In this document: positions 624 to 21,559 of the stretch, one piece after another | Numbering within the stretch: the stretch's first letter is position 1 | How the letters are laid out: the number at the start of each line of letters is the position of its first letter | NCBI GenBank assembly: GCA_964497155.1 | Contig: CAZCCB010000009.1 | Coordinates: forward strand, 4,385 to 32,000 | Direction: 5' to 3' | DNA: 27,616 nt | Source of the DNA: an uncultured Nitrososphaerota archaeon | GTDB taxonomy: Archaea > Thermoproteota > Methanomethylicia > Culexarchaeales > Culexmicrobiaceae | Made by a program: the position numbers and the translations under genes | Notes under the pieces: generated by a model | The model's database searches: none | Seen by the model: only the letters and a program-made list of their open reading frames with translations | What the model was told of the DNA's origin: nothing

Positions 624-2852
<2,229 letters not shown>

Positions 2853-3168: not shown

Positions 3169-3180
3169 AACCTCTCCTCC

Positions 3181-3366
3181 TCACGGTCCTTCAAATCCAC
3201 ATTTTGGACATTTATAAGAATTTGCTGTTGATCGACATCTCCAACATCTCCATAAAATTATTTCACCACAATTTGGACATGGAAAGTTAACCCCCTTTTC
3301 TCCAGGTATTATCGGAGTTTTACATGATATGCAGACTGGTAGCTTTAATTCTTCATCAGCAGACAT
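3181..3366 (-). CDS. Small double zinc-ribbon protein (the type usually found next to aEF-1beta in archaea)
   Basis: Four CxxC pairs (CISC, CPNC, CWRC, CPKC). I place the start at the internal ATG (MSADEELKLPVC...), which has a GGAGG 8 nt upstream, rather than at the ORF-track start 3408. Adjacency to ef1b is a conserved archaeal arrangement, from memory. Confidence 0.75.
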   Translation of the reverse strand: MSADEELKLPVCISCKTPIIPGEKGVNFPCPNCGEIILWRCWRCRSTANSYKCPKCGFEGP

Positions 3367-3477
3367 TTTTATACTTCCTCCACTTTGAAGACACTCTACA
3401 TTTTTCAAATAAAAGTTTTTCCTTATAACTAGCGTTGAACTTTTATTCTTCTTTTCTAAGTTACGTACTGATCCTAA

Positions 3478-3834
3478 TTGAGTGAATTAAAACAAGTAAT
3501 AGTTGTTCGTGCTGATTTGAAAATGAGTAGGGGTAAGTTAGCTGTTCAAGTAGCTCATGCAGCAGTATGTGCAGCTGAAGAAGCTAGAAATAAATTTAAT
3601 AATTGGTGGAAGGATTGGTTAACATCTGGTCAAAAAAAGGTTGTAGTTAAAGTAAAAGACGAGGAAGAATTATTAAGAATTTTTAATTTAGCCCGATTAA
3701 TGAATCTTCCCTCAGTCCTCATTTCGAATAGAGGTTTAACGGAGCTTCCACCAGGTACAATAACTTGTGTAGGTATTGGTCCTGCACCTTCCGAACTAAT
3801 TGATAAGATAACCGGAACTTTACCTCTTCTCTAG
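3478..3834 (+). CDS. pth2: Peptidyl-tRNA hydrolase, archaeal/eukaryotic Pth2 type
   Basis: 118 aa. KQVIVVRADLKMSRGKLAVQVAHAAV...GQKKVVVKV...TELPPGTITCVGIGPAP...ITGTLPLL is the Pth2 signature. TTG start. Confidence 0.9.
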   Translation: MSELKQVIVVRADLKMSRGKLAVQVAHAAVCAAEEARNKFNNWWKDWLTSGQKKVVVKVKDEEELLRIFNLARLMNLPSVLISNRGLTELPPGTITCVGIGPAPSELIDKITGTLPLL

Positions 3835-3835
3835 G

Positions 3836-5170: not shown

Positions 5171-5173
5171 CAA

Positions 5174-6493
5174 CTAGGGTACAAGTCTATCCCTATCTCT
5201 AGGGAACAATGTTACCTCTCTAATATTCTTTTTACCAGTTATCACCATAAGAAGACGTTGAAAGCCTATAGCCCAACCTGCATGTGGGGGCATTCCATAA
5301 TCATAATACGATAGGAATGGTTCAAATTTCTCAGGATTTAGATTTTGTTCTTTAAGCCTCTCTATAAGCAGATCTTTTACATGTATTCTAGTCCCACCAC
5401 TCGCCAGTTCTAGCCAAGACCAGTTTAAGTCAAATGATTCAGTTATTTCCGGATCATCATCTTTGGGCTTTATATAGAAGGGCTTTAATTTTCTTGGCCA
5501 GTTAATTATGAAATATGGTTCCTTAAAAATTTCACCTAAAATTCTATTTGCTTTCGTAGGTAAGTCGTCTCCCCATTCTAATGATAAATCATGCTCCCTT
5601 AAAATTTCAAGAGCCTCATCATAAGTTATTCTCTTAAACGGTTTCTTTGGAACAATAATTTCTTGACTTAAGATTTCCAATTCATTTGCACACTTTTTCT
5701 TAACTTCGCTTATAGTATGTACAATTAATTCTTCAAGTATCTTCATAACATCATTAGCATTAACGAAGGCTGCTTCTATATCGACAGATATAAATTCATT
5801 TAAATGATATGTTGTATTCATTTCTTCAGCTCTATAATACTGAGCAATTTCAAATACTTTTTCGAAAACTGAAGTTAAAATCTCCTTATACAGCTGAGGA
5901 CTTTGTGCTAAGAATGCTTCTTTTTCAAAATAAATTACTGGAAATAATGCTGCTCCTCCTTCTGTTGCTGTAGCTAAAATTTTAGGAGTAAATACTTCTA
6001 TGAATCCCTCTCCTATTAAGAATTGACGAATTATATTTAATGTTTCATGATGAATTTTAAATATTGCAAAGTTACATGGTATTCTTAAGTCTAGAATTCG
6101 AGCATTTAATCTAGTATCAAGGTCTGCTGGCGTTCTTCCAGTGGTATCTAAAGGTAATGGTGTTTTGGCAATATTCAAAATTTTTATTTCTTTAGGTAAT
6201 ATTTCGACACCATTAGGTATTGAGGGTATTTTCTTAACTTGCCCCTTTACACCTATTACACTTTCTTTTTTCAAAACCTTTACTTTGTTAAAGAGTTCTT
6301 CAGAAACTTTTTTTCTAGGTAGGGTGATTTGTATAGTTCCTTCTCGATCCCTTAAAATTATGAATTTAATTCCTCCTAAATCCCTTATATCAACTATCCA
6401 TCCGAAGACAATGACTTCTTCGCCTTCATTTTTAGGTGATATTTCGCTTGTATAGTGTGTTCTTCTCCACTCCCCCATTACATCGATCTTCAT
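5174..6493 (-). CDS. aspS: Aspartyl-tRNA synthetase (archaeal class IIb)
   Basis: 439 aa. Close motif-by-motif resemblance to archaeal AspRS: RTHYTSEI, DLGGIKFIILRDREG, FLAQSPQLYK, YRAEEMNTTYHLNEF, SGGTRIH, GMPPHAGWAIG, FPRDRDRLVP at the C-terminus. Confidence 0.93.
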   Translation of the reverse strand: MKIDVMGEWRRTHYTSEISPKNEGEEVIVFGWIVDIRDLGGIKFIILRDREGTIQITLPRKKVSEELFNKVKVLKKESVIGVKGQVKKIPSIPNGVEILPKEIKILNIAKTPLPLDTTGRTPADLDTRLNARILDLRIPCNFAIFKIHHETLNIIRQFLIGEGFIEVFTPKILATATEGGAALFPVIYFEKEAFLAQSPQLYKEILTSVFEKVFEIAQYYRAEEMNTTYHLNEFISVDIEAAFVNANDVMKILEELIVHTISEVKKKCANELEILSQEIIVPKKPFKRITYDEALEILREHDLSLEWGDDLPTKANRILGEIFKEPYFIINWPRKLKPFYIKPKDDDPEITESFDLNWSWLELASGGTRIHVKDLLIERLKEQNLNPEKFEPFLSYYDYGMPPHAGWAIGFQRLLMVITGKKNIREVTLFPRDRDRLVP

Positions 6494-7994: not shown

Positions 7995-9131
7995 TTGAGG
8001 TTATATGAATATCAAGCCAAAGAGGTTTTCAAAAAATATGGGATACCGATTCCTATTGGAAGCGTAGTTTCCTCACCTACTGAAGCTAGACAAGTTGCAG
8101 AGAAAATTGGAAAACCTGTAGTATTAAAAGTTCAAGTTTTAGTTGGAGGAAGAGGAAAAGCTGGAGGTATAAAATTTGCATCAAATCCTCAAGAAGCTGA
8201 AAAAATTGCTAAGACACTTATTGGCCAAACATTTAAGGGATTTAAAGTAAGTAAACTTCTGGTTGAAGAGAAACTTCAAATAAAAGAGGAATACTATTTA
8301 GGCTTCACTATAGATCGATCAGCAAGAAAATTAGTTGCAATAGCAAGCTCACGCGGTGGGGTAGACATTGAAGAAATAGCAATTTCATTTCCGCAATATA
8401 TTGTTAAGCAGCATGTTGATCCATTAATAGGTTTTTATCCATTCATGGCTAGACAATTAATCAAAAAATTAGGATTTGAAGGTAAAATATTAAATGAAAT
8501 GTCAAGCTTTCTTTATAAGTTGTATAAGATTATGATTGACTATGATGCTGAATTAATTGAAATTAATCCATTAGTATTAACTGAAGATAATAAACTAATT
8601 GCAGCTGATGCTCGATTAAATATTGATTCTGATGCCCTCTTTAGGCATTCTGATATTAAGCAAATTGAAGAATTATCAACATTTTCACCATATGAATTAG
8701 AGGCTAAGAAAGCTGGGCTATCATACGTGGAACTTGATGGAAACATAGGAATTATAGGTAATGGCGCTGGATTAGTAATGACAACATTAGACTTAGTTAA
8801 AATGTATGGAGGTAATCCAGCAAACTTCTTAGATGTTGGTGGAGGTGCTGCATCGGAATCAATTGCTACTGCGCTCAGAATATTATTGAATCATCCAAGA
8901 GTGAAAGTAATCTTAATTAATATTCTTGGTGGAATAACTAGGTGCGATGAAGTAGCCAAAGGAATAATTTCAGCATTAAAAACTTCAAATATGGGCAAAC
9001 CTATTGTAATAAGGTTAACTGGAACAAATGAATTAGAAGGAAGAAAAATATTGAAGAATGAAGGATTAATAGCGTTATCTTCCATGGAAGAAGCCGCTAA
9101 GAAAGCTGTCGAATTAGTGGGGGGAGAATGA
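7995..9131 (+). CDS. sucC: Succinyl-CoA synthetase beta subunit
   Basis: 378 aa. [83 protein letters not shown]. Confidence 0.93.
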
Positions 9132-9132
9132 T

Positions 9133-10002
9133 TTGGGCATAATAGTCGGTAAAGATACTAGAGTAATAGTTCAAGGGATAACTGGGAGGCAGGGTAGATT
9201 TCATACTAAATTAATGTTAGATTATGGTACAAAAATAGTAGCTGGTGTGACTCCAGGAAAGGGAGGGCAAAATGTTCATGGAGTACCTGTTTATGATACA
9301 ATAGTTGAAGCATTGAAAAATCATCCTGCAGATACATCAATAATTTTTGTACCTGCACCTTATGCTTTTGATGCTGTTGTAGAGGCTATATTATCGGGAA
9401 TGAAAAATGTTGTAGTAATAACTGAACACATACCTGTACATGATTCAATAAAAATGATAGCTCTTGCAAAATTAAGAGGAACAAGAATTATTGGACCAAA
9501 TACTCCTGGTATTATAACTCCTGGTGAATGTAAAGTTGGCATAATGCCTAGTAAAGTTTTCAAGCCAGGTTCAATAGGCATAGTCTCACGAAGTGGTACT
9601 CTAACCTATGAAATTGCAATGAACTTATCAAATGAAGGATTTGGACAATCCACGTGTATAGGAATTGGAGGGGATCCTGTAGTTGGTCTTGATTTTATAG
9701 ACATATTAAATCTGTTTAGAGAGGATAAACAAACTAAAGCAATAGTCATCATTGGTGAAATAGGTGGAGATGCTGAAGAAAGAGCCGCATCATTTATTGA
9801 AGAGACAAATTATCCGAAGCCAATAGTTGCATTTATTGCTGGCCGAACTGCTCCGCCAGGGAAAAGAATGGGTCATGCTGGTGCAATTATATCAGGAAGA
9901 TTTGGATCTGCAGAGAGTAAAATAAAAGCTTTTAATAGAGCAGGAATTCCCGTAGCTAAAAAACCATCGGAAATTCCAAAATTAGTTGATAGGTTAATTT
10001 AA
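9133..10002 (+). CDS. sucD: Succinyl-CoA synthetase alpha subunit
   Basis: 289 aa. [47 protein letters not shown] and the phosphohistidine loop [13 protein letters not shown] start 1 nt after the sucC stop. Confidence 0.95.
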
Positions 10003-10631
10003 TATTGTTTCAATTTTCTTTCAATTCGCTCCAGCATCTTTTCATTACAATATTTCATAATTTTTTTATCTAACATACTCTTCTCCATAATTTCTCTTAA
10101 GTCTTCAATTAACGTTCTAGCCAAATCAATATTTTTATTCATCTTTATCAAGTATTTATTGAGATCAACTAAATATAATAGGAAGGTAGCTATTTCTCTT
10201 ATTTTTCTCTTTATAATTTTTTCATCCTTCATTTCTTTCTCAGAAAGATAAAATTTCTTGTTTAGCTTTTTAATTTTCTCAATAATATTAATTATTCTTT
10301 CTCTTATATTAATTATTCTATTTGAAATTAATTTTAATTTATTTATAATTATCTTAAGAACTTCATTAACTATTAGAATTTCTTTTGCAATTTCAATTTT
10401 ATTTTGATTAATTAATTTAAAAACTTTATTTTCATTACTTAATATTTTCTCCGAACAAAGTATAACTTCATGAGTAATCCACTTCACAATTTTTTGTGAG
10501 GCCTCTAAATCTTTTGTAGTCTCATGCAAAATTGCCTCAATATTTATATTATCTCGTATTTTTTCTTTTGTAATTTCAAGTATATTGAAGATAACTTCTG
10601 TACTGATTGGTCTTTTATCCAATATTTCCAT
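9999..10631 (-). CDS. Hypothetical Ile/Lys/Asn-rich all-helical (coiled-coil-like) protein
   Basis: A 210-aa uninterrupted ORF in a very AT-rich stretch. No motif recognised. Internally repetitive ([32 protein letters not shown]). A 633-nt open frame in stop-rich AT-rich DNA argues for real coding. Its 3' end overlaps sucD by 4 nt. Confidence 0.5.
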
Positions 10632-10697
10632 CTCCGATATCTCTTATGCAAAAGCTTTATAATACTGTTTAGATTGCTACTAAATGGTGATCTCCTA

Positions 10698-10859
10698 ATG
10701 CCAATACATGACCCAGAAAAACTAAGGATTGCACAACAACGGCGTTTATTCATTAAAATTTGCAGAAAATGTGGAGCCCGTAATCCCGCATCAGCTGAAA
10801 AATGTCGAAGATGTAGAAGTAAGAATTTAAGATGGAAAAGAAGAGAAAGATCACGATAA
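10698..10859 (+). CDS. rpl40e: Ribosomal protein L40e (eL40)
   Basis: 53 aa. MPIHDPEKLRIAQQRRLFIKICRKCGARNPASAEKCRRCRSKNLRWKRRE, with the CxxC...CxxC ribbon of L40e. The ORF-track start at 10524 adds an implausible N-terminal extension antisense to the neighbouring gene. Confidence 0.9.
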   Translation: MPIHDPEKLRIAQQRRLFIKICRKCGARNPASAEKCRRCRSKNLRWKRRERSR

Positions 10860-10980
10860 TAACATTGTTATATTGTTATATTTTCTATTCCATAGTATTG
10901 CTTAAAGCTAAATAGCGTAATCCATACTAGTTAATTATATTTCGAGTAAACTTTAAGGGATCTGAAAAACATTTTCATAT

Positions 10981-11057
10981 GGGCGGGTGGTCCAGCTGGT
11001 TAGGATGCCGCCCTCACACGGCGGAGAGCGTGGGTTCGAATCCCACCCCGCCCACCA
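10981..11057 (+). tRNA. tRNA-Val (anticodon CAC), with genomically encoded 3' CCA
   Basis: Hand-folded cloverleaf. Acceptor GGGCGGG/CCCGCCC (7 bp), D stem GTCC/GGAT, anticodon stem CCGCC/GGCGG with loop CTCACAC (anticodon CAC), variable loop AGAGC, T arm GTGGG-TTCGAAT-CCCAC, discriminator A, then CCA. No intron. Confidence 0.93.
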
Positions 11058-11165
11058 TTATCTTCCAGTTTAATATTTTCCTAAAATGATCTATATTGAT
11101 TTATTACTTTAAATTATATTGCTTTTATTAGAATCTTAAGTATTAATTTTATTATGAATATTATT

Positions 11166-12440
11166 TTAGGTTTTAGTTTTTATTATTTCATTATTTTCTG
11201 GGATAATTATTTCAGTCTTTAATGTATCTCTAATCTCTTCTGCAAAAACTTTTAGATTTTCCTTTTCTCCATGTATCATTACAATTTCTGCATCTTCTCT
11301 TTTTTCCTTAACTTTTTTAATTATATCTGTTAACTCTTTCTTTCCACAATGAGATGAAAAGTCGAACCATTTTACTTTTGCTTTCACTTTTTCTATTCTT
11401 TTTCCGAAGTTAAATACTCCGTTTTCTAAAAGAATATGACCTGGGGTTCCAGGTATTTGATATGATACTAGGAAAACTGCATTTTTCTCATTTCTAGCTA
11501 ATTTTTTCATATAAAAGACTGCTGTTCCTCCCTTAAGCATACCTGCTGGGGAAACTATTATTGCTGGTTTTTTACAAGCTTTTTTTCTTTGACTCCATCC
11601 AGAAATCCATATTGCCTTTTCAAGTGCTCTTGCCAGCAATTTATAATTTCTAAAGAACTCTGGATATCTTAACATTATTTTACTTGCTCTTCTGGCCATT
11701 CCGTCTAAGAAAATTTTTGATTTAACTTTATGAGCTGTCAATATACATAATATCTCTTGAGATCTTCCTACTGAGAATGCAGGTATTAATACTGTCCCTC
11801 CGTTATCAATTATTTTTTGAATTTCATCTACAAATTCCTTTTCTAATTCTCTTCTATTTGGGTGATTAGTTGTTGTATAGGTACCTTCCATTATGATTAA
11901 ATCTAATTTTGGAAGTTTTTTGGGTGCACCTTTTAATAATCTAGTGTTTATAGTGTTTAGATCTCCAGTAAAGAGGATTCTTTTTCCATTAGCTTCTATT
12001 ATAGTCATCATACTGCCTGGAATGTGTCCTGCATTTAAAAATCTAATTGACATATCTTTTATCTTTATTCTCTGACCATAAGATACTGGGTATAAGTTAC
12101 GTAGCATTGTATCTAATTCAATGTTTTCATATGGAAGATAATAACCTGATATTTTTATTAAATCTTGAATTAAGAGTTCAGTAATTTCAGCTGTTAATTT
12201 TGTTGCTATAAATTTCGGTTTTTCAGTAATGTATAATAGTGGAATGCTGCCTGAATGATCTAAATGTGCGTGACTTAAAATTACTGCTTTTATTTCTTTA
12301 GGAGAAACATGGAAAGGGTATTCAGGCTCACCATTGGTTAACATTATTCCGTAGTCGAGTAGAATATTGTTCTCATTATGCATTAATAAGATTCCTATTC
12401 TTCCTATTTCTCCACCGCCACCTAGAATTCTGAGCTTCAA
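11166..12440 (-). CDS. Metallo-beta-lactamase / beta-CASP family RNase (aCPSF2-like, no KH domains)
   Basis: 424 aa. HAHLDHSG motif 2, later GH, EGTY and a C-terminal H (MIHGE) typical of the beta-CASP RNA-metabolising MBL fold. Size matches the KH-less archaeal group. Confidence 0.85.
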   Translation of the reverse strand: MKLRILGGGGEIGRIGILLMHNENNILLDYGIMLTNGEPEYPFHVSPKEIKAVILSHAHLDHSGSIPLLYITEKPKFIATKLTAEITELLIQDLIKISGYYLPYENIELDTMLRNLYPVSYGQRIKIKDMSIRFLNAGHIPGSMMTIIEANGKRILFTGDLNTINTRLLKGAPKKLPKLDLIIMEGTYTTTNHPNRRELEKEFVDEIQKIIDNGGTVLIPAFSVGRSQEILCILTAHKVKSKIFLDGMARRASKIMLRYPEFFRNYKLLARALEKAIWISGWSQRKKACKKPAIIVSPAGMLKGGTAVFYMKKLARNEKNAVFLVSYQIPGTPGHILLENGVFNFGKRIEKVKAKVKWFDFSSHCGKKELTDIIKKVKEKREDAEIVMIHGEKENLKVFAEEIRDTLKTEIIIPENNEIIKTKT

Positions 12441-12507
12441 TTTTTTCCCTCACTTCAACATAGATAACTTTTAAACGTTGTTTATCAAAGTTGTGTATGG
12501 GAGAGTC

Positions 12508-13233
12508 ATGGCTACTAAAATAATTTTACAGGAAGAGGTTGATTTAAGTAATTGCACCTTTATATCTGGCTTCCATGGTATAGGATTAGCTGGCTTTATT
12601 GCAGTTAAGCATTTAATTAAAAAATTGAAAGCGAAAAGAATAGGTTTTTTGGAATCACGTCTCCTTCCTCCTTTCATATCAATTGATGTAGATAATAATA
12701 TAATAACTCCATTTGAATTCTTTAAGTATAATAACTGCATTTTCTTTTTAACGGAATTCCCTCCTTATGAAAAGGAGATGTATACTCTTTCTAAAGTTCT
12801 TGCAGACTGGATTGTTAATAATAAGTTTTCTAAGGCAATATTAATTGGTGGGCTTGATAAAAGATTCAAGCATAGTGAAGAAATTTCATGTAAATTCATA
12901 ATGACTTCAGCCTTTAAGAAAGCTGGCTTTATAGCTAAGGAATTACCAATATTGGATAGCGGATTACATGCATTTGGGCTCTTAGCATTACTTCTCGCTA
13001 GATTTGAGATTAGAAACTTTCCTGCACTAGCTATTTTGCCTTATGCTGACGCTTCAAGACCTGATCCTCTTGCAGCTTCAGTAGCTATTGATTTCTTAAA
13101 TAAATTTCTCGGTTTAAATGTTGATACTTCTGAATTAATAAGAGATGCTGAAAGAATTGAGCAGGAAATTAAAGCCATACAGCAATTAGCTAAAAAACTT
13201 AAGGCTCCTCATGAAAAGACATTATACATGTAG
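12508..13233 (+). CDS. PAC2-family protein (proteasome assembly chaperone-like)
   Basis: N-terminal FISGFHGIGLAGFIAVKHLI resembles the PAC2 family G-[FL]-x-G-x-G-x-[VA]-G signature. Size of about 240 aa fits. Start moved to ATG 12508 (MATKII...). Confidence 0.7.
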   Translation: MATKIILQEEVDLSNCTFISGFHGIGLAGFIAVKHLIKKLKAKRIGFLESRLLPPFISIDVDNNIITPFEFFKYNNCIFFLTEFPPYEKEMYTLSKVLADWIVNNKFSKAILIGGLDKRFKHSEEISCKFIMTSAFKKAGFIAKELPILDSGLHAFGLLALLLARFEIRNFPALAILPYADASRPDPLAASVAIDFLNKFLGLNVDTSELIRDAERIEQEIKAIQQLAKKLKAPHEKTLYM

Positions 13234-14850
13234 AATCTCTCCACTTAACGTTTTCAATATTTCTTTAAGTTCTTTTGTTCCATTCCTTACAATCTTTACT
13301 TTAACATTAAGTTTATTACATAATTTTTTAAGTCTATTTACAATTTTTTCATTTAGATAATGATGATCTTCATCCTTGTATATGATTACAAATCTATAGT
13401 TATTGTTCTTCAAAAGTATCTCTGCGGCTTTTAATATTACTTTATAGGAATTTAAATCTTTATGTATTGATTTCTCATGTTGTGTGAGCGGATAAATTTC
13501 ATCAATTTCTAATGGTATTATTCCAAATGGTACACAGTAAATACATTCATGTACTTCTACAGCTCTTTCCCTTAATGTCTTATTTACTATCTTAATTATC
13601 CTCTTTACCTTTTTGCTTTTATGATATGGTTTTTCAATAGGATCAGGTATAAGTAAGAGTATTTTTTTATCATGAAATCTAACGTTTCTTTGTAACTTTA
13701 TTAAATGTCTAGTGATCTCCGGCCTTGATAATCCTTCATATGAAAAGTAGAAAATCCCCTTGACTTTACCTTTTAATGATGGATCATACTTTTCTAGATA
13801 TTTCCTATATTTCATTAACCTGAGAACTGCCTGATGTAATTGTGGATGTGCCCTCGCCTTTATTTCAATTAATTCCCATAATGTTCCCTCATGAATTGCC
13901 TGCTTAATGTTATTAATTTCCTTAATGATAACTGACAAATTGTGTTCAGCTAATATCTGCATTCTACTTTTCTTATCAAGTTCCTTTAATTCTTTTGCCT
14001 CATATTTTCTGCATACTTCACAGTTACATGGAAGTACTTCTAATCTATCAAGCTTTATAGTTCCTGTTGGAGTGATGTACCTGTCATCACGTGCATAGAT
14101 GGCGTAGGATGCCGAATCAAATGTATCGCATCCAAGTGCTACTAATAATGGAAGAATAAGCGGATGACCTGCTCCAAATAAATGTACTGGTCTATTTATT
14201 GGTAATTCTCTTTTTGCATTAACGACTAAATCTACAAGATCATCAAAACGGTAGTTCTCCATTAATTGAGTTGGCCCTCCGATTGCATGCATTTGAAAAT
14301 TCATTGATCCAATTTTCCTTGCACAATACCTAACTAAATCAGTATAGATTCCTCCCTGAACTGGGCCAACCCAAATAATATCACTTCTAGTAATTTTTTC
14401 AATGCTTATTTTTGCATTTTTAATTGTCCTCCATACAGTTTCCCTTGCTTCTTTATATGATGCAGTTCCAGATGTAGGTATATCTAAAATAACTGCAATA
14501 TCAGAATTAAGTTTTTCTTGAATCTCTATTATTTCAATGGGATCTATCGATACTTTTTTATATACCAGAATTTGATATGCTCCTGAATCGGTCATTATTA
14601 TATCATTAAAGTTTAGAATTTCATGTATATCTCTAATTGGCATTGATCGCTGAATTAGATACTTGCTTAAAATATATGCGTTTGTTATTATATTTTTTAT
14701 TTTAAATTTATTTTTTAATATATTTACTGGTATTATGTTGTTTCTCGGATTAATTACTGGAAAAAATGCTGGGGTTTCAATAACTCCCATTTTAGTTACC
14801 AGTTTTCCAGTTCTTCCAGCAAGATCCTTCTCTTTCACTTCAAATATCAT
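13222..14850 (-). CDS. tgtA: Archaeosine tRNA-guanine transglycosylase (ArcTGT), short form without a recognisable PUA domain
   Basis: 542 aa. MTDSGAYQ, GGPTQLMENY, HLFGAGHP and Zn site CNCEVCRKY...H are TGT motifs. The C-terminal region of about 180 aa resembles the ArcTGT C1 domain. Nothing looks like the C2/PUA tail. Confidence 0.9.
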   Translation of the reverse strand: MIFEVKEKDLAGRTGKLVTKMGVIETPAFFPVINPRNNIIPVNILKNKFKIKNIITNAYILSKYLIQRSMPIRDIHEILNFNDIIMTDSGAYQILVYKKVSIDPIEIIEIQEKLNSDIAVILDIPTSGTASYKEARETVWRTIKNAKISIEKITRSDIIWVGPVQGGIYTDLVRYCARKIGSMNFQMHAIGGPTQLMENYRFDDLVDLVVNAKRELPINRPVHLFGAGHPLILPLLVALGCDTFDSASYAIYARDDRYITPTGTIKLDRLEVLPCNCEVCRKYEAKELKELDKKSRMQILAEHNLSVIIKEINNIKQAIHEGTLWELIEIKARAHPQLHQAVLRLMKYRKYLEKYDPSLKGKVKGIFYFSYEGLSRPEITRHLIKLQRNVRFHDKKILLLIPDPIEKPYHKSKKVKRIIKIVNKTLRERAVEVHECIYCVPFGIIPLEIDEIYPLTQHEKSIHKDLNSYKVILKAAEILLKNNNYRFVIIYKDEDHHYLNEKIVNRLKKLCNKLNVKVKIVRNGTKELKEILKTLSGEILHV

Positions 14851-14857
14851 GAGTTTC

Positions 14858-15304
14858 TCACTTTCTTTCCCTCTTTTTCTCAGCTACAAACTGTTCATAT
14901 ACTCTTTTTACTCTTTCAGCTACTGGTCCACTTCCTTCTACAACCCCTTCTTCCGTAACTCTTATTCTATCCATTACGACGATTACTCCTGCCTCTTCAT
15001 AAAGCTTAACCATATTTGGAAACATTTTCTCCAATCGTTCAGCCAGTCCTTTTAAATCAAAAGGCTCCTCCTGTCTTATTATTTCTGAAATTACATCTCC
15101 CCGGATAAATACTCTTGCATAGACTGTTCCTTGATTATCCTTAGCCTCAGATAAGCATAGACTTAATGTATTTGGGTCATATCCTATCAGCTTTCCTAAA
15201 TAAGTTTTTCCATGAATAGTTTTTACACTAACGGTTTTATCAAGTAGAGCAGCTAATTCTCTAAGAAATCTCACACTTCCAGTTGCAGTTAAGCTACTTG
15301 CCAT
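14858..15304 (-). CDS. Lsm/Sm-like protein with a C-terminal extension (SmAP3-like)
   Basis: Sm fold segment LLDKTVSVKTIHGKTYLGKLIGYDPNTLSLCLSEA...VFIRGDVISEI, followed by an extra domain of about 70 aa, as in crenarchaeal SmAP3. Start placed at MASSL (ATG 15304), which has a GGAGG upstream. The ORF-track start 15388 overlaps the rpo8 start region. Confidence 0.75.
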   Translation of the reverse strand: MASSLTATGSVRFLRELAALLDKTVSVKTIHGKTYLGKLIGYDPNTLSLCLSEAKDNQGTVYARVFIRGDVISEIIRQEEPFDLKGLAERLEKMFPNMVKLYEEAGVIVVMDRIRVTEEGVVEGSGPVAERVKRVYEQFVAEKKRERK

Positions 15305-15378
15305 AAATTTTCCTCCAACCCAATTGACGCAGAAGAATTTATTTGTTTTTTCATTCAATAAGCTTTCGGCGATCACTA

Positions 15379-15753
15379 ATGAATGCAATTGTTAAGCTCA
15401 GACTGGATCGCATTGAGCAATCTGAAATTAGAGGTATTCTAGCTTTTCATTTTTCAGAAATAAATGGAGATCTAAGCATAGATGGAGAACTTCCTGAAAG
15501 CTTAATTGTCAATAAGCTTAAATTAAATAGCAATGTAATTATCATTATATCTAATGATGAGCTCTCTGTTGGAGATTTAAAGAAGTATGGTTCTCCTGTA
15601 ATTATTTGTGAAGGAATTCTTTACAAGAAAGCTAAGGAGGATGATAAGAATAAGTATTGGATTTCGCTTCATGGGTTTCAATTCAGAATTGAGACTAAGA
15701 AAGATTTCTTAGAAAGCATGGGCAGAATATGGTTTGGAATAGCAGTTAAATAA
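15379..15753 (+). CDS. rpo8: RNA polymerase subunit Rpo8 (RpoG)-like protein
   Basis: 124 aa from ATG 15379. From my memory of Sulfolobus RpoG, the C-terminal block NKYWISLHGFQFRIETKKDFL...RIWFGIAVK resembles ...YTTIISLYGLLVKIISNKESFL...HVYFCVKK. The N-terminus is less clear. Confidence 0.6.
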   Translation: MNAIVKLRLDRIEQSEIRGILAFHFSEINGDLSIDGELPESLIVNKLKLNSNVIIIISNDELSVGDLKKYGSPVIICEGILYKKAKEDDKNKYWISLHGFQFRIETKKDFLESMGRIWFGIAVK

Positions 15754-15904
15754 TTTTATTACTTTCACTCTTCTCTCTACTTGATAACCAAATAATAGAA
15801 TGTATCTTACATATAATAAAGTGTACTTATTTATTATTTAAATGAATAATAGTATAAGAAAAAGTTAATATTTGAAAAAAGTTTAATATCAAAAAGGGAT
15901 TTAA

Positions 15905-16906
15905 ATGACCGATAAACGATTTAGATGTAAAGAGTGTGGTGGTTCCCTAACAATTTCAGAATACGGAGAATTAGTGTGCACAAATTGTGGTCTAGTTAAC
16001 GATAAAATCTATCTTCCTCCGCTCTTCGAAATTGAACCTCTTTCAGATTTCTCTGCAACCTCTAAGGTATATGTAAGTCCTGATTGGAAACCTACTAGAA
16101 GTGATGGACTTGGAACAATAATTTTAAGATGTAGAAATTTCCTTAAAAAAGATAGAAGTAATATATCTAATTACATTAGGTTCATGAAATTAAGCTATAT
16201 ACACGAAATTTATTCTCGTGATCCATTTTATAAATCCACATTAAATGCTTTCTATGCTCTAAGGAGAGCATGCTCCAACTTAAGAGTGTCTTCACATATT
16301 TTTCAAAGAGCTTCATATATTTTTTTAAAAGCTATAAAACATGTAAGAGAAGCAGGATCGAGCTATGTAATTGCTGCAGCTTCATTACTAATAGCTGTGA
16401 GAGATTTAAATTACCCAATTACATTAAGAGAGATAGCCTCTACATTTTCCCAAATGGGACATAGAGTACTCGCTAAATCAATATCCAAAGCTGCAATCTT
16501 AATAGCTAGAAGACTAAACATTAATTGGAAATTACGTAGAGTAGAGGACTATCTACCTCGTATAGTAAATAATTTAAAATTTATTTATGAAGTGAATCAC
16601 CGCATAAATGATTTAGAAATTGATAAAGACACATACTTTAATTCGTTATTAAATGTCTCTTATAAAATTGCAAAAATATTAGATGATAAAATTAGAATGG
16701 GAAAAAATCCATATCTATTGGCAATTTCAATAGTTTATATTGCTGATAAAATAATAGCTAAAGAACTTAATTGCAAACCAATTCTCTCTCAAAAAACATT
16801 AGCTATCCATTTAAAATCAACTGAATATACAATAAGGCAGCACTTTAAAATAATAAATGAAATACTTAAACGTCATGGAATATCGGTTTCACTTAATTAC
16901 TACTAA
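15905..16906 (+). CDS. Transcription factor B (TFIIB) paralog, full length but divergent
   Basis: 333 aa. N-terminal Zn ribbon C-x2-C-x13-C-x2-C (CKECGGSLTISEYGELVCTNCG). First cyclin fold: FQRASYIFLKAIKHVREAGSSYVIAAASLLIAVRDLNYPITLREIA. Second cyclin fold: GKNPYLLAISIVYIADKI...SQKTLAIHLKSTEYTIRQHFKII. Preceded by a 151-nt very AT-rich spacer. Confidence 0.85.
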   Translation: MTDKRFRCKECGGSLTISEYGELVCTNCGLVNDKIYLPPLFEIEPLSDFSATSKVYVSPDWKPTRSDGLGTIILRCRNFLKKDRSNISNYIRFMKLSYIHEIYSRDPFYKSTLNAFYALRRACSNLRVSSHIFQRASYIFLKAIKHVREAGSSYVIAAASLLIAVRDLNYPITLREIASTFSQMGHRVLAKSISKAAILIARRLNINWKLRRVEDYLPRIVNNLKFIYEVNHRINDLEIDKDTYFNSLLNVSYKIAKILDDKIRMGKNPYLLAISIVYIADKIIAKELNCKPILSQKTLAIHLKSTEYTIRQHFKIINEILKRHGISVSLNYY

Positions 16907-16940
16907 TATTTTTCCATATTGCCTAAAGGTGAATATCCAA

Positions 16941-19052
16941 ATGAATATATTTTTGAATAACATGTGTTTTCTATCTCCATTAATTGTCATGAAATCAACT
17001 CATACCTTAATTATGAAAATTAACTGCCCTAAAAAATGTGTTTTTAAGTCTTTTTTTGGTGAGAAAATATGTATCTCCTCTTTTGCATTGGCATATGCTT
17101 CATGTAAAATTACTAATAAAAATATTAAGGTCAAAATAAGCGGTGGAACGATTAAATATGATAATGACTATATTGAGTCCCTTGCCAATATTATTTATAG
17201 CATAAGATTTAAAAACCCCACTTACTTTCATGAAATAATCAATAAATGTAAATACTCCAATGATATATTTGCCCAAGCCATTTTGGATATCGTATCACTT
17301 TATCCCAATATTGGAACATTATATTATGATATTCATGTCTTAGATGAATTATCTAATCTAATAAAAAAGTGTGACATATTACCTAACTATATTAAGAAAT
17401 TTATTAAAAAAATCAACAAAAAATATTATAAATCAATTTCGAAGGATTTCCCATACAATGAAACATATGAGTCATCACTAATAAACGATACTTCAGTAAC
17501 TAACCTAAACTTCTCATGTAAAAAACATTCCTATATCATTAATGATATATTTATGGTTACTCTAATCCATGAAAATTCATCATTTAATCCAACTTACTAT
17601 GTTAATTATAAACCTGAATTACATCAACTCCTTCCAACCTTATGGTCAACAAGCACCTTTATATCGCTTAAAAAATTATCTAGTATAGGAATTGGTCATG
17701 GATTTCTCTCAAAAATAATAACTAAACGCCAAAGATTAGCTTTCAATTTTCTTAAAAAATATTTTCCAGAATTCCCAGGTGAGGTTTTAGGAAAAATTGC
17801 TTTTCTCGCGGGATTTGATTCAATTGGATTCTTGAAGATTGCTCCATTTCTCCTTGATGATAATGTTGAAGAATTCTTTATTGATCGGCCTAACTCTCCC
17901 ATTTACATTGATCATTCTAAGTGGGGAAGATGCAAATCAAATATCCTGATAACTTCAAACGATATAAACAGAATATTAACCCAGCTCAAAGCTGAAAGTG
18001 GTCTTAGACTAGATATGTTATCTCCTTCACTTAAAACAGATATTATAACTAAAATTTTCCATGTAAGAGTTTCAGCAGATATTTCACCATTGACAGTTGA
18101 CGGCCCTTCAATAATTTTTAGATGTTTTAAAAGAAAACCCCTAACAATAATTGATCTAATTAATAATGGTACATTAAGTATTAAAGCTGCAGCATATTTG
18201 ATTTTCTGTCTATTCCACAGGAGAAATATCATGGCCATAGGTGAACCCGCCTCTGGAAAAACAACTCTAATTAACGCACTAGACATGATTACGCCTCCAC
18301 ATTGGAGAAAAATTTCCATAGAATCAGCTGTAGAAAGTATAAGACAAGTAAATCTTGAGCATTATCAAGTTAGATATCGAGTAGATCCATTTGAAAGTTC
18401 AAAACCTTTAAGGAGAAAATATACTGAAGTTATAAAGCTTCTCCATCGTTCTCCTAATTTCATTTTTCTAGGAGAACTTCTTACTCATGAACATGTTAAA
18501 GCCCTTTTCTATGCACTATTATCTGGATTAAAAGGATTAGAAACATGTCATGCAAGTTCTTTAAAAGCCTTAATATTAAAATGGACACTATATTATAAGA
18601 TACCTTGGTTTTATCTACCTGAGCTAGATGTTGTAATTCAAATGAAAAGAATACTTCTCCCATTAGTTAATAAGAGATTGGTTTGGAGGATAAGTGAGAT
18701 AGAGCTTATTGAATCCAATGATTATGATCATGTTAAAATGCATAATTTTCCTCAAGCGTTTAGAATTCTCGACATTTTCAAGTATGATTCAATAAATGGA
18801 TTATCCCCTACAGTTAACTTATACGAGACTCCGGTATTGAAAAAAATAAGAGATGAAGAATATCTAACCAAAGAAAATTTTTATAGTGAACTAAATTTCT
18901 ATGAAAAAATAATTAATTTACTAATTAAAAATAAAATATCTGATAATAAAACTATTATAAAGGTTTTTGCTAAAGCATTTTTATTGTCAAAAAATAGAAA
19001 TTTCAATTTAAAGGAGGTTTTAAGTATTGTCCATTCTCTTAAAAGTGTATAA
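16941..19052 (+). CDS. Type IV filament / secretion ATPase of the FlaI-TadA-VirB11 (T2SSE) superfamily with a long N-terminal extension
   Basis: Walker A GEPASGKTT (18240-18266), Asp-box-like KISIESAVE, Walker B FIFLGELL (18459-18482), His box ETCHASS (from 18543). Upstream FlaI-like N2 region: LLDDNVEEFFIDRPNSPIYIDHSKWGRCKSNI...LSPSLKTDI...VRVSADISPLTVDGPSIIFRCFKRKPLTIIDLINNGTLS. Start placed at ATG 16941, with AGGTGA 8 nt upstream. The ORF-track start 16857 would overlap the TFB gene by 50 nt. Confidence 0.85.
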   Translation: MNIFLNNMCFLSPLIVMKSTHTLIMKINCPKKCVFKSFFGEKICISSFALAYASCKITNKNIKVKISGGTIKYDNDYIESLANIIYSIRFKNPTYFHEIINKCKYSNDIFAQAILDIVSLYPNIGTLYYDIHVLDELSNLIKKCDILPNYIKKFIKKINKKYYKSISKDFPYNETYESSLINDTSVTNLNFSCKKHSYIINDIFMVTLIHENSSFNPTYYVNYKPELHQLLPTLWSTSTFISLKKLSSIGIGHGFLSKIITKRQRLAFNFLKKYFPEFPGEVLGKIAFLAGFDSIGFLKIAPFLLDDNVEEFFIDRPNSPIYIDHSKWGRCKSNILITSNDINRILTQLKAESGLRLDMLSPSLKTDIITKIFHVRVSADISPLTVDGPSIIFRCFKRKPLTIIDLINNGTLSIKAAAYLIFCLFHRRNIMAIGEPASGKTTLINALDMITPPHWRKISIESAVESIRQVNLEHYQVRYRVDPFESSKPLRRKYTEVIKLLHRSPNFIFLGELLTHEHVKALFYALLSGLKGLETCHASSLKALILKWTLYYKIPWFYLPELDVVIQMKRILLPLVNKRLVWRISEIELIESNDYDHVKMHNFPQAFRILDIFKYDSINGLSPTVNLYETPVLKKIRDEEYLTKENFYSELNFYEKIINLLIKNKISDNKTIIKVFAKAFLLSKNRNFNLKEVLSIVHSLKSV

Positions 19053-19872
19053 TTATATGGATTTTCCTCTTCCAATGAAAATCGTCAATAAATTGGCTTC
19101 AGATGAGCTTAAAGAATCCATTAAATATTTATCGATAAGAAGCGGTATAGAATATTTATCAACCAGAGCTATAATTTCGTCCTCGATAGCATTGTCATCA
19201 ATAATTTCATTTTTATGCTTTTTAGTATTGACATTCATATTCCTAATTAATGTTTTCTTATCCTTTTTATTATCAATTCTATTTTTCATAATAATCTACA
19301 ATTTTATTTTAACATTTCCAATTAGAATATATCAACATGATAAAATTATCCTTTCAAGGTATGCCTACCTAATACTGCGAGAATTGTCAATGGTTATATC
19401 AATAACTGGCTCATTACTTGATGCCCTAATTTTCATTAAGTTTGGTAATTATCCAATAATCTCTAAGGATATGAAATCAATAATTTTATCTTGCTTTAAT
19501 GGCTTTCCTCCAGGTCATGCCCTTAATATGTATGCTTCCTTTTTACCTTCAATCACCTTAAGAAATGGTTTAAAATTAATTTCAAATCCTAATATACTTT
19601 CGTCTGAAACTCTATCCTCAATATGCTATCTTACTACTTCAGAGATAAAAGGTATTCTTAAAGATCACCAATCTAAAATTGAATTATACTGTTTAATGCT
19701 TATAGTATTAGGATTACTCTTCCCATTTTCATATCTCATGCTAATTCCATTCCTAAAGACACATGTTATAGATCTTTCAATAATACCTTTCATAATGATT
19801 ATTCTTCACATTATCTTACTATCCCTGCTCACAAAAAAATTAATGGAGAAAATTAGAGGGGTGTTAAATTGA
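19027..19872 (+). CDS. Polytopic membrane protein, single T2SSF domain (TadB/TadC/FlaJ-like platform protein)
   Basis: 281 aa. N-terminal hydrophobic helices, a central soluble helical segment (SRYAYLILRELSMVISITGSLLDALIFIKFGNYPIISKDMKSIILSCFNGFPPGHALNMYA) and C-terminal TM helices, which is the T2SSF architecture. The TTG start has a strong GGAGG 9 nt upstream and overlaps the ATPase stop by 26 nt. Confidence 0.7.
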   Translation: MSILLKVYNYMDFPLPMKIVNKLASDELKESIKYLSIRSGIEYLSTRAIISSSIALSSIISFLCFLVLTFIFLINVFLSFLLSILFFIIIYNFILTFPIRIYQHDKIILSRYAYLILRELSMVISITGSLLDALIFIKFGNYPIISKDMKSIILSCFNGFPPGHALNMYASFLPSITLRNGLKLISNPNILSSETLSSICYLTTSEIKGILKDHQSKIELYCLMLIVLGLLFPFSYLMLIPFLKTHVIDLSIIPFIMIILHIILLSLLTKKLMEKIRGVLN

Positions 19873-20654
19873 AATCATTTCTTCCCTCAATATCTCATCT
19901 CATATTCAATATCTATTTTCAAATAATAATTATTATTACTATAATTTTCATATTATCAATATATTTATTAAATAAACTATTACGTAATAGAAAAACCATC
20001 AACCTTAAAAAATACTTTAATGAATCAATTGAACTAGAAAACTTCTTAACTTTATTCGCTTCCAACTTAAGATTTGGATTAAGCCCAGAACTTTCTCTTC
20101 TCAAATCATGTAACAGTTATTCTGGAACATTGAAAAATAAAATAAAGCAACTAAAAAATTATATATCCTCAGGTCTTAACGTTTTTCAAGTACTTTCTAT
20201 TTTAAGTAAAGAACTTTACTTCGATGAGAATAAGAGAGTGATTTATCTATTTATGAAGATGCTTAATAAAGCCCCCCGTAAGCTAGGTCATGTTGCATAT
20301 GATGTAATTAATAATATTAAGGAGCTGAGAGAATTAAGATTTGAAATTGATACTATGTTTTCAAGAATGAAATTGAGAGTTATTCTTTTATCAATTATTT
20401 CTTCAATAGTCTACGCATTTATGGTTAAGATATCATATTTCTTTTTATTTCAAACAACAATATTTTCTAAAATAAAAATTAATCTCGAAAATTTTCATGT
20501 CTCACTATTCATAGCAACCGCCCTCTTAACTTTCATAAATAGCTATTATATCTCATTAGCAATAGGTATAAGTAGGCCAGTAATAATTTCCATAATTTCT
20601 GAATTACTTTACCTACTAGCATATTTAGTTATCCCGCGAATACCAAGTATTTAA
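19869..20654 (+). CDS. Second polytopic membrane protein, single T2SSF domain (TadC/TadB/FlaJ-like)
   Basis: 261 aa. N-terminal TM helix, a soluble segment (LFASNLRFGLSPELSLLKSCNSYSGTLKNKIKQLKNYISSGLNVFQVLSILSKEL...) and C-terminal TM helices. The TTG start overlaps the upstream stop (ATTGA) and has GAGGGGTG upstream. There is no in-frame ATG in the N-terminal half of the ORF, so a non-ATG start is required. Confidence 0.7.
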   Translation: MKSFLPSISHLIFNIYFQIIIIITIIFILSIYLLNKLLRNRKTINLKKYFNESIELENFLTLFASNLRFGLSPELSLLKSCNSYSGTLKNKIKQLKNYISSGLNVFQVLSILSKELYFDENKRVIYLFMKMLNKAPRKLGHVAYDVINNIKELRELRFEIDTMFSRMKLRVILLSIISSIVYAFMVKISYFFLFQTTIFSKIKINLENFHVSLFIATALLTFINSYYISLAIGISRPVIISIISELLYLLAYLVIPRIPSI

Positions 20655-20660
20655 ATATTT

Positions 20661-20668
20661 TTTATATA
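20661..20668 (+). promoter_or_regulatory. TATA-box-like element (TTTATATA) upstream of the pilin gene
   Basis: Exact match to the archaeal YTTAWATA consensus in the 29-nt gap between the platform gene and the pilin ORF. Only 15 nt separate it from the TTG start, so the geometry is imperfect. This motif can also arise by chance in an AT-rich genome. Confidence 0.3.
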
Positions 20669-20683
20669 AAAAGATAAGGGGCT

Positions 20684-20929
20684 TTGAGAAGGATTCTGAG
20701 GAGAATATTCCTGCTATTAAAGGATAAAAAGGCTTCACCATTACTCGAAGAAGGAATGCTAATAGGACTTGCAATAATGACTCTTACCGTAGTTTTTTCA
20801 ATAATTGTTGGCATTCTCGGAGGAGTGCAAGATATTGTTAAAAACTTAGGTTTTGCCACCGAAGACTTTATGAATGCATTAAATGAGCTATGGACTAAAA
20901 TTATGGCTTTCCTAGGTCTTAGAGGTTAA
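20684..20929 (+). CDS. Flp-like / class III signal peptide prepilin (small type IV pilin)
   Basis: 81 aa. Basic leader MRRILRRIFLLLKDKKA, then SPLLEEGMLIGLAIMTLTVVFSIIVGILGG. This gives a small residue at -1, Glu at +5 and +6, and a hydrophobic helix of about 22 residues. From memory it aligns with the Flp motif G|xxxxEY-GLIAALIAV. It is the last gene of the ATPase/platform cluster. The start codon is uncertain: TTG 20684 or ATT 20693. An ATG at 20756 would remove the leader. Confidence 0.6.
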   Translation: MRRILRRIFLLLKDKKASPLLEEGMLIGLAIMTLTVVFSIIVGILGGVQDIVKNLGFATEDFMNALNELWTKIMAFLGLRG

Positions 20930-21505
20930 GTATGTTAGATATTTCTCAATAATCCCCTCTTTTTCTAATTCTCTAAGCCAGTTAATTCTACCAGGTTTGA
21001 AGTCATGATTTTTTATTGCTTGCATTATTTCCTCAATTATTTCTTCAACATTCTTTCCCGTAGCATTTACTTCTCTTACTAGTTCCTCACTATAAGTATT
21101 GATAGCTTCAATTAAGCATTCATCAAGAATTTCAGCTAATACATTTTCAGCTATTTTTTTCTCAGGCCATCCTCTTTTAATAAGTCTCTTCTCAAGTTCA
21201 AGAGGATGTAATCTAATGACGATTACTTTTTTTACATACTCTTTAGGTACAATATCTGCAAAATGTCCTTCAACAATTACATAGCCCTTATATTTGCTAA
21301 TTATATCCAAAATCTTTTGTATCAACTTATCTACATCTGCTATTAGAGTGAAACTTCTTTTTTCGTCGACTCCAATGTATAACTTTTCTTCTCTCACAAG
21401 TTTAGACAAGTTTACGTGATATGCATTTAATTTTTTACATAGATGCCTTGAGATTGTAGTTTTACCTGTCCCAGGAGTGCCATGGATAACAATTACTTTT
21501 CTCAT
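20912..21505 (-). CDS. fap7: Fap7/AK6-type adenylate kinase (small-subunit rRNA maturation NTPase)
   Basis: MRKVIVIHGTPGTGKTTISRHL (P-loop), ...VIVEGHFADIV..., about 197 aa. Start placed at ATG 21505 rather than GTG 21514. Its 3' end overlaps the pilin ORF by 18 nt (convergent). Confidence 0.85.
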   Translation of the reverse strand: MRKVIVIHGTPGTGKTTISRHLCKKLNAYHVNLSKLVREEKLYIGVDEKRSFTLIADVDKLIQKILDIISKYKGYVIVEGHFADIVPKEYVKKVIVIRLHPLELEKRLIKRGWPEKKIAENVLAEILDECLIEAINTYSEELVREVNATGKNVEEIIEEIMQAIKNHDFKPGRINWLRELEKEGIIEKYLTYLTSKT

Positions 21506-21559
21506 TTTATGCACATTATACCTTTTTATTTAGTTAGATATAACCTTATATGAGAGTAA

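Follow-up and report, generated by a model that had tools for sequence, protein, structure and literature searches.

Subclade 4D of the archaeal type IV pilus (T4P) systems was described by Makarova, Koonin and Albers in 2016 from Pyrobaculum and Thermoproteus (PMC4858521). Its predicted operon encodes the ATPase arCOG05558, a membrane protein with 4-5 transmembrane segments (arCOG05557/13890) and the transcription factor IIB (TFIIB) homolog arCOG05559, with RPB8 adjacent. The ATPase has a Cys-rich N-terminus and no C-terminal domain, arCOG05558 proteins being 335-343 aa long, and the TFIIB homolog has a single cyclin domain. The authors saw no pilin and suggested a possible transcription-related pathway; TFIIB homologs are the commonest regulators in archaeal T4P loci (PMC4858521). 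A 2026 census gives the description of 4D again. It reports that archaeal type IV filament systems are widespread, Asgard archaea excepted, and its ordered searches found only core machinery components co-localised in most Asgard genomes. The RNA polymerase subunit Rpo8 has been reported in Thermoproteota and Asgard archaea alone. TFB3, a pilus-related transcription factor B (TFB) paralog, is a truncated protein whose gene lies apart from the ups operon and which acts together with TFB1. According to PMC6101594, TFB3 is needed for induction of the ups pilus operon in Sulfolobales and responds to DNA damage. In this study, we analysed a stretch of 27,616 nucleotides from an uncultured Nitrososphaerota archaeon (contig CAZCCB010000009.1 of assembly GCA_964497155.1), hereafter called the window. 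It contains a block of five genes in which a TFB paralog stands ahead of a putative type IV filament assembly system. Set beside 4D by published description and protein lengths, this locus appears to be a relative of it that is more complete and far more widespread. The original prediction, made from the letters of this DNA, had taken a TFB gene heading a filament operon for an arrangement not known before; this did not hold, as 4D had been described in 2016 and was repeated in the 2026 census.

All five open reading frames (ORFs) were found, tightly packed on the plus strand at 15905-20929, as the original prediction had proposed. They encode the TFB paralog, an ATPase, two membrane proteins (TM1 and TM2) and an 81-aa Flp-like protein. 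The TM1 gene starts before the ATPase gene ends, sharing 26 nt with it, and itself shares 4 nt with the TM2 gene. The proposed Shine-Dalgarno motifs were also present: GGTGA lies 8 nt ahead of the ATPase ATG at 16941, GGAGG ahead of the TM1 start TTG 19027, GAGGGGTG ahead of the TM2 start TTG 19869 and AAGGGG ahead of the Flp-like gene start TTG 20684. An alternative longer ATPase ORF runs from 16857. The start was taken as 16941 because GGTGA precedes this position and the homologs begin at its equivalent.

Relatives of the block were collected by a conserved-peptide scan for the ATPase family in GTDB species genomes, which gave 278; the locus counts given here refer to the best 80 of these 278. 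Genes were counted with iterated profiles on six-frame ORFs, and a TFB gene was regarded as linked when it lay within 7 kb of the ATPase gene. The 80 loci span Methanomethylicia/Culexarchaeia (the closest, with 46% identity), Bathyarchaeia, Thermoprotei, Thermofilaceae and Asgard archaea, the last represented by Thor, Odin, Jord, Frey, Atabey, Hel, Hod, Hermod and Promethearchaeia lineages. The Flp-like gene was present in 68/80 loci, the platform (TM1/TM2, split or fused) in about 60, the TFB paralog in 41, Rpo8 in 21, Fap7 in 16, Lsm in 14 and TGT in 12. Adjacency of the TFB gene was thus conserved in 41/80 loci, in four arrangements: immediately upstream of the ATPase gene in the same direction (27 loci), upstream with an insert of 2-4.5 kb (8 loci), divergent (3 loci) and downstream (3 loci). 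No TFB was found in 35 loci, mostly from Promethearchaeia, and the upstream sequence was too short to judge in 4. Rpo8 lay directly upstream of the TFB paralog and co-directional with it in 21/21 loci in which it was detected, and the reported range of Rpo8 agrees with that of the TFB-ATPase module. The Rpo8 candidates of Thorarchaeota matched Thermoproteota Rpo8 by hhalign with a probability of 99.1% and E 1.8e-18, and their best PDB match was eukaryotic Rpb8. All ten Thorarchaeota loci carry Rpo8-TFB-ATPase-Flp without the other genes of the array discussed below. The TFB-ATPase linkage also outlasts several independent rearrangements: in loci with neither Lsm nor Rpo8 detected, the TFB gene is divergent (L014 and L015 from Freyarchaeia, and the unlabelled L011) or downstream (L068 from Helarchaeota and the unlabelled L029). 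Independent precomputed calls on a Methanomethylicia contig (L082) give the five genes of the block again, as TFIIB and T2SSE followed by proteins of 274, 266 and 77 aa. The five-gene arrangement recurs in distant lineages far more than by chance, and the TFB-ATPase linkage is taken to be under selection. The best explanation for the block is that it is part of a module which is old and has been passed on mostly vertically in Thermoproteota and Asgard archaea.

The TFB paralog gave 31.4 bits with Pfam TFIIB (cutoff 23.6) and 25.7 bits with Pfam Zn_Ribbon_TF, under the cutoff of 29. As predicted, it is full-length: it aligned end to end with NCBIfam PRK00423, and its 68.5 bits, far under the cutoff of 384, mark it as a paralog and not as the housekeeping general factor. 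In an alignment of 21 paralogs, the Zn-ribbon residues C8, C11, C25 and C28 were invariant or nearly so, two cyclin repeats were present and the linker carried a conserved DGLG(S/T)xI motif. HMMER pairs this motif with the human TFIIB segment LSDGDLSTMIG, which we take to be the B-linker. The reader-like part is divergent, and residues 35-86 were modelled at a predicted local distance difference test score (pLDDT) below 50. A C-terminal LTQK...GVAEYSIRDHY motif is helix-turn-helix-like and presumably resembles the helix-turn-helix of canonical TFB sequences that reads the B recognition element (BRE). The AlphaFold2 (AF2) model had a pLDDT of 76.7 overall and of about 90 for residues ~110-330. 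Foldseek matched it to the TFB/TFIIB cores 1d3u_B (TM-score 0.72) and 1ais_B (TM-score 0.69) over 226 columns. From the Zn ribbon, linker motif, cyclin repeats, C-terminal motif and core fold, the paralog is a complete but very divergent TFB. The predicted RNA polymerase-, TATA-binding protein- and DNA-binding domains are all kept, yet the protein is far removed from the housekeeping TFB. With the paralog profile, family members scored at least 214 bits and other TFB-like proteins at most 124 bits. An exhaustive search with a Thermofilaceae-type profile found a compact family of 162 proteins at E<=1e-3 among 1.84 billion representatives, and members whose names were looked up are annotated as 'hypothetical protein'. 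A weakly TFB-like protein from a Promethearchaeota metagenome-assembled genome (P0136) was considered as a displaced paralog and rejected, as it scored far under the family and its neighbourhood was unrelated.

The second gene encodes an ATPase that gave 37.1 bits with Pfam T2SSE (cutoff 24.9). Walker A (GEPASGKTT), Walker B (FIFLGELL) and the His box (ETCHAS) are intact, which agrees with the original prediction. The protein scored 102.5 bits with the NCBIfam FlaI equivalog NF058587, far under its cutoff of 550, and 61.5 bits with the TadA/CpaF model TIGR03819 (cutoff 373). Its AF2 model had a pLDDT of 85.6, and Foldseek ranked afGspE (2oap; E 1.7e-28, TM-score 0.77) first, then FlaI, then TadA/CpaF. 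The canonical N-terminal, ATPase and C-terminal domains occupy residues ~195-703; residues 1-165 are an additional domain whose semi-conserved cysteines include a CPxxC. These results indicate an archaeal enzyme of the FlaI/GspE type whose catalytic motifs are intact and which carries a Cys-rich N-terminal domain in addition. The label 'Tad/Epd-like' given to the block is therefore an analogy only, since the ATPase is nearer to afGspE and FlaI than to TadA/CpaF by both sequence and fold. In precomputed annotations, PF27713 (UCP018868) is matched by many members of the ATPase family and by bacterial CpaF proteins alike. A shorter family member of 526 aa with no TFB nearby was seen in Jordarchaeales (L083, GCA_038821275.1, 5824-15455), flanked on one side by the RNA polymerase subunit B gene and on the other by genes with EAP30, VPS28 (ESCRT-related) and UQ_con (ubiquitin-conjugating) Pfam domains.

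For the two membrane proteins, Pfam T2SSF was matched by 6/15 TM1 homologs (best E 7.8e-6), 6/16 TM2 homologs (best E 8.4e-5) and 1/20 fused platform forms, and no other Pfam family recurred among the TM1 and TM2 homologs. The two were similar to each other by hhalign (E 7e-5, probability 62%), and in 28 loci they are fused as one protein of about 505-510 aa, a form seen in Promethearchaeia. A profile of the fused platform gave chance-level matches only against PDB sequences. TM1 and TM2, paralogs with a weak resemblance to T2SSF that other lineages carry as a fusion, are thus predicted to make up a platform split in two.

The last gene encodes an 81-aa protein with a 17-aa leader, MRRILRRIFLLLKDKKA, and a predicted cleavage site at A17|S18 (KKA|SPLLEE). 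The sequence across this site is KKA|SPLLEEGMLIGLAIMTLTVVF, and the predicted mature N-terminus, SPLLEEGMLIGLAIM, has Glu at +5. As expected of Flp or class III prepilins, in which a leader ending in G or A and Glu+5 precede a hydrophobic helix of ~20 residues, the protein has one transmembrane helix, followed by a short amphipathic tail. [GA]|xxhhE[EY] was found in 44/68 homologs, 26 of these 44 having K or R at -2, and Glu+5 is the sole invariant column in an alignment of 28 homologs. The remaining 24/68 are leaderless and begin with MTNLLEK exactly at the predicted mature N-terminus. These come from Promethearchaeia, Hodarchaeales and Hermodarchaeia and have ~100 extra C-terminal residues; in their loci (L035-L073, e.g. 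L044 7133-7552 and L047 8244-8663), the platform is fused and no TFB is nearby. One Promethearchaeia homolog reads A|GSLLEYG, matching the bacterial Flp E5-Y6 signature. A profile of the Flp-like protein gave chance-level matches only against PDB sequences. By these alignments, the 81-aa protein bears an Flp-type prepilin signature. Further pilin-like genes were found in some lineages. In a Thermoprotei metagenome-assembled genome (L022), the insert between TFB and ATPase (3545-6380) holds two small coiled-coil genes as well as four pilin-like genes on the minus strand, whose products begin with class-III-like or MxxVLE[EK] sequences. Thermofilaceae loci have extra pilin candidates with MxxhhEE N-termini. 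L022 also encodes a 228-aa membrane protein after the Flp-like gene (10382-11068). Neither this protein nor the inserted L022 genes had a significant Pfam match, and the coiled-coil pair gave sub-threshold coiled-coil matches. Overall, the proposed picture of a minimal type IV filament module with a split platform and an Flp-like subunit was supported in its general form.

A conserved promoter block precedes the TFB gene (Table 1), and we infer that it corresponds to BRE plus TATA. TATAAGAAAAAGTT, 40-50 nt upstream of the TFB start, is invariant in the window and in L001, L002, L003, L005 and L010, that is, in six Methanomethylicia-type genomes whose proteins are merely ~45-57% identical. The exact core TAAGAAAAARTT has a single occurrence in the window and is positioned identically in the other five genomes, where the block lies at 5914-5927 (L001), 31-44 (L002), 5910-5923 (L003), 5596-5609 (L005) and 5656-5669 (L010). 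Judged by this conservation, the promoter block could serve as a BRE-like element that one particular TFB recognises. A shared promoter motif was considered as a sign of autoregulation and rejected, as the conserved block is unique in the window and absent ahead of the other genes.

Table 1. Features of the five-gene block and its borders, in window coordinates.
Feature	Coordinates	Strand	Evidence or position
Rpo8 (RpoG) RNA polymerase subunit	15379..15753	+	Pfam RNA_pol_RpbG 29.7 bits, cutoff 27
Conserved promoter block, TATAAGAAAAAGTT then TATA-like TTAATATT	15853..15873	+	32-52 nt upstream of TFB start codon
TFB paralog, full-length, highly divergent, 333 aa	15905..16906	+	Pfam TFIIB, PRK00423 alignment, AF2 fold
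FlaI/GspE-type secretion/filament ATPase, 703 aa	16941..19052	+	Pfam T2SSE, motifs, Foldseek
Platform protein half 1 (TM1), predicted, 281 aa, 4 predicted transmembrane segments	19027..19872	+	Homologs matching T2SSF
Platform protein half 2 (TM2), predicted, 261 aa, 4 predicted transmembrane segments	19869..20654	+	Sub-threshold T2SSF, homologs
Flp-like prepilin candidate, 81 aa	20684..20929	+	Motif alignments, gene context
Fap7-like adenylate kinase	20912..21514	-	NCBIfam PRK03839 126 bits, Pfam AAA_18

As predicted, Rpo8 lies upstream of the block and the Fap7-like kinase forms its convergent downstream edge (Table 1), a place that Fap7 keeps in 16 loci. The spacer before the TFB gene is 151 nt long and AT-rich. 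The Rpo8 ORF is listed from TTG 15343, and its true start is probably ATG 15379. The Lsm gene (14858-15388, minus strand), which has an Lsm_C domain, overlaps the listed Rpo8 ORF (15343-15753, plus strand) by 46 nt at their divergent 5' ends; with Rpo8 starting at ATG 15379, the start codons overlap by just ~10 nt. Since the two 5' ends overlap, each promoter must fall inside the coding region of the other gene. All other window ORFs of at least 90 aa that matched Pfam fall into housekeeping families, among them CDC48, TruD, AspRS, succinyl-CoA ligase, beta-CASP RNase, PAC2, archaeosine TGT, Lsm, NOG1 and RtcA. No archaellin or other archaellum gene was found among window ORFs of at least 90 aa. 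Horizontal transfer was rejected as an origin of the block, whose G+C of 0.27-0.30 is near the 0.30-0.36 of the flanks and whose whole region is syntenic in related genomes. A viral origin was also rejected; the only PHROGs match for the five proteins was an unannotated TFB-like family. A scan for sigma-70 promoters and terminators, which is not applicable to archaea, gave counts at the level of shuffled sequence.

Nearly the entire window (1-27616) is syntenic with the Methanomethylicia contig L082. The shared order is CDC48, PTH2, TruD, AspRS, Lrp, L40e, beta-CASP, TGT, Lsm and the five-gene block, followed by Fap7, MJ1316, cytidylyltransferase, FKBP and UPF0179. By this synteny, the window falls within Methanomethylicia or close to it. 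A succinyl-CoA ligase pair (window 7995-10002) is missing from L082. In the window ORF at 10524-10859 (111 aa), the match to ribosomal protein L40e is confined to the last ~40 residues, and the L082 homolog has 53 aa; the true gene is therefore probably far shorter. A minus-strand ORF of 210 aa (9999-10631) overlaps it and has no Pfam match. In L062, a Thorarchaeota Rpo8-TFB-ATPase-Flp block is flanked by two huge repeat-rich proteins, each with at least one hydrophobic membrane-anchor-like segment. This neighbourhood also holds a 1243-aa protein with the P-loop motif GATGTGKT and has no adjacent platform gene; the large flanking and P-loop proteins lie at 1938-4592, 8750-10801 and 11021-14752.

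We consider a filament module under a dedicated TFB to be the most likely reading of the locus, at a probability of about 0.5. In this module, a minimal type IV filament assembly system would be coupled to a full-length TFB paralog of its own, whose gene usually follows Rpo8. A prepilin peptidase encoded elsewhere would cut the 81-aa protein after Ala17, and the ATPase and platform would assemble the cleaved protein into a thin Flp-like filament. The TFB paralog would be a promoter-specific initiation factor that turns the module on, a switch resembling the control of ups pili by TFB3 but with a full-length factor in cis; this role is proposed from the TFB3-ups precedent and the intact domains of the paralog. 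A real filament is favoured because of the Flp-type subunit, the platform and the additional pilin-like genes in some lineages. Several observations weigh against this reading. The assignment of the membrane proteins as single-T2SSF-domain proteins held for the matching homologs and was weak for the copies in the window: TM2 reached 17.2 bits with Pfam T2SSF over model positions 1-124 of 125, under the cutoff of 25.2, and TM1 had no Pfam match. The call of an Flp-like prepilin stood as regards the motif with its invariant Glu+5 and failed as regards the models, 0/28 homologs matching Pfam Flp_Fap or Class_IIIsignal at E up to 1, so that the pilin assignment rests on motif and gene context. No prepilin peptidase, as had been predicted, and no further filament gene was found among window ORFs of at least 90 aa, and the peptidase was also not found in two independently annotated related loci. 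The promoter block was not repeated before any other gene of the five-gene block in a scan of the window, which gives no sign here that the TFB acts on the other promoters of the block. In addition, about 35 loci, mostly from Promethearchaeia, have the ATPase, the platform and the small protein but no TFB in the neighbourhood, and the machine thus does not strictly need it. For the family as a whole, the filament, its processing and its transcript are predicted from the genes alone.

The Thorarchaeota loci and some of those from Odinarchaeota, which have no recognisable platform gene beside the ATPase, also weigh against a filament. They would fit a repurposed machine with a transcription role, in which ATPase, platform and small membrane protein form a membrane complex and no pilus. 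Such a complex would hold the TFB at the membrane via the Cys-rich domain and release it on a signal, like an anti-sigma factor, or else act on RNA polymerase via Rpo8. It is consistent with this explanation that Rpo8, TFB and ATPase stay together across the Thermoproteota-Asgard divide, that the block is surrounded by housekeeping genes within a region of macro-synteny, and that in many loci the TFB gene directly adjoins or overlaps the ATPase gene, suggesting coupled synthesis. The Pyrobaculum/Thermoproteus 4D form is moreover pilin-less, with an ATPase of just ~340 aa, the ATPase family has a lineage-specific Cys-rich extra domain, and the small protein fits no pilin model. We nevertheless regard a repurposed machine as unlikely. 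The small protein has kept the exact prepilin signature with its invariant Glu+5, some lineages have several additional pilin-like genes, many lineages keep the machine with no TFB nearby, and an interaction between TFB and ATPase is purely hypothetical. The adjacency of Rpo8 and TFB in 21/21 loci suggests that the TFB may functionally belong with the polymerase and not with the filament genes, a further point against the favoured reading. It is also what would be expected if the linkage were inherited gene order without shared function. The TFB would then pair with Rpo8 as a transcription pair, and the filament module, unrelated to them, would just lie next to them in an ancient, slowly breaking array of housekeeping genes, TGT-Lsm-Rpo8-TFB ... 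Fap7-MJ1316-NOG1. The whole array and most of the window are syntenic in Methanomethylicia, and parts of the array persist in Thermoprotei, Bathyarchaeia and Odinarchaeota. In the 8 loci with 2-4.5 kb between TFB and ATPase, the TFB gene is convergent with the inserted genes and therefore lies outside the ATPase operon, and the roughly 35 loci without a nearby TFB point the same way. Mere inherited order is unlikely, because the TFB stays with the ATPase more than the other array genes do (within 7 kb in 41 loci, vs 14 for Lsm, 16 for Fap7 and 12 for TGT) and because it stays linked in rearranged loci without detected Lsm or Rpo8. By rough reasoning, any TFB would fall within 14 kb of a given gene by chance in ~1-2% of genomes. 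A bolder and still less probable proposal is that the common ancestor of Thermoproteota and Asgard archaea had a filament-derived membrane machine wired to its own TFB paralog and Rpo8, which gated the initiation factor. Gating would possibly run through the Cys-rich N-terminal domain of the ATPase, as a metal- or redox-sensing element.

If the paralog drives the module, as in the favoured reading of a filament under a dedicated TFB, it would be a rare archaeal case of a complete alternative general transcription factor genetically tied to one defined target, and a clean system for how TFB paralogs choose promoters. Asgard lineages would gain a likely filament system with a recognisable Flp-like subunit, beyond the core components of the 2026 census, and the puzzling pilin-less 4D system would be recast as the reduced end of a widespread, ancient module. 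If the machine controls the factor instead, the archaeal relatives of eukaryotes would have a novel type of signalling from membrane to polymerase. If the ancestral gating proposal were true, it would provide an archaeal counterpart of sigma/anti-sigma signalling across the membrane and point to early specialised TFIIB-family factors in the lineage leading to eukaryotes.

Among known structures, afGspE (PDB 2OAP) and FlaI (PDB 4IHQ/4II7) were the best matches of the ATPase, over ~506-536 aligned columns that comprise the N-terminal domain, ATPase core and C-terminal domain; the protein studied here differs from both in its additional ~165-aa Cys-rich N-terminal domain. The locus resembles the bacterial Tad/Flp systems in having a platform that is predicted to consist of two single-T2SSF-domain proteins (TadB and TadC in Tad), a tiny subunit with a G|xxxxE[Y/E] motif followed by a hydrophobic helix, and a hexameric secretion-type ATPase (TadA/CpaF) as its motor. 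However, its ATPase is nearer to archaeal afGspE and FlaI than to CpaF, its small protein has no Pfam Flp match, and no TadZ, secretin, TadV or TadE/F-type pseudopilins were found among window ORFs of at least 90 aa. Tad loci are not known to have a TFB gene. The Epd pili of Methanococcus belong to clade 1 of the archaeal systems. The ATPases of clade 1 belong to the CpaF family and go with an EppA-type peptidase (PMC4858521, arCOG table). Like the system predicted here, Epd is an archaeal filament system with two platform-like proteins (EpdJ/K) and short class-III-signal pilins (PMC4858521). The ATPase studied here is FlaI/GspE-like, unlike the Epd ATPase EpdL, no peptidase is linked to the locus whereas Epd has EppA, and Epd loci are not known to be associated with TFB or Rpo8. 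The locus shares with TFB3 and the ups pili a TFB paralog dedicated to turning on a type IV pilus operon, as proposed above. In contrast to TFB3, the paralog here is full-length with its DNA- and polymerase-binding parts and heads the block in cis.

The closest described system is 4D. Both have a TFIIB homolog, a T4P-type ATPase and a 4-5-segment membrane protein in one predicted operon, with Rpo8/RPB8 adjoining, a Cys-rich ATPase N-terminus and housekeeping surroundings, and the order Rpo8, TFB, ATPase, membrane proteins is kept on one strand. They differ in several respects. The ATPase here has 703 aa and a C-terminal domain, as judged from the alignment of its model over the full length of afGspE, whereas 4D ATPases have 335-343 aa and lack one. 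The TFB has two cyclin repeats vs one, there are two platform halves vs one membrane protein, and an Flp-like gene is present where no pilin was reported in 4D. The family here spans Methanomethylicia, Bathyarchaeia, Thermoprotei, Thermofilaceae and many Asgard lineages, whereas 4D is confined to one genus group. No Pyrobaculum or Thermoproteus protein came from the 21-sequence TFB profile or from the exhaustive Thermofilaceae-type search, where the 20 matches looked up by name gave Thermoprotei and Thermofilum proteins. In the literature covered, which was partial, no paper was found that deals with the wider family, with its Flp-like gene or with its occurrence in Asgard archaea. By gene content rather than by demonstrated sequence orthology, the locus is best regarded as the complete system of which 4D is a reduced form. 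The TFB-ATPase-Rpo8 arrangement is already published; the locus studied here is a fuller and far more widespread variant, with a candidate pilin where the literature calls the pilin absent.

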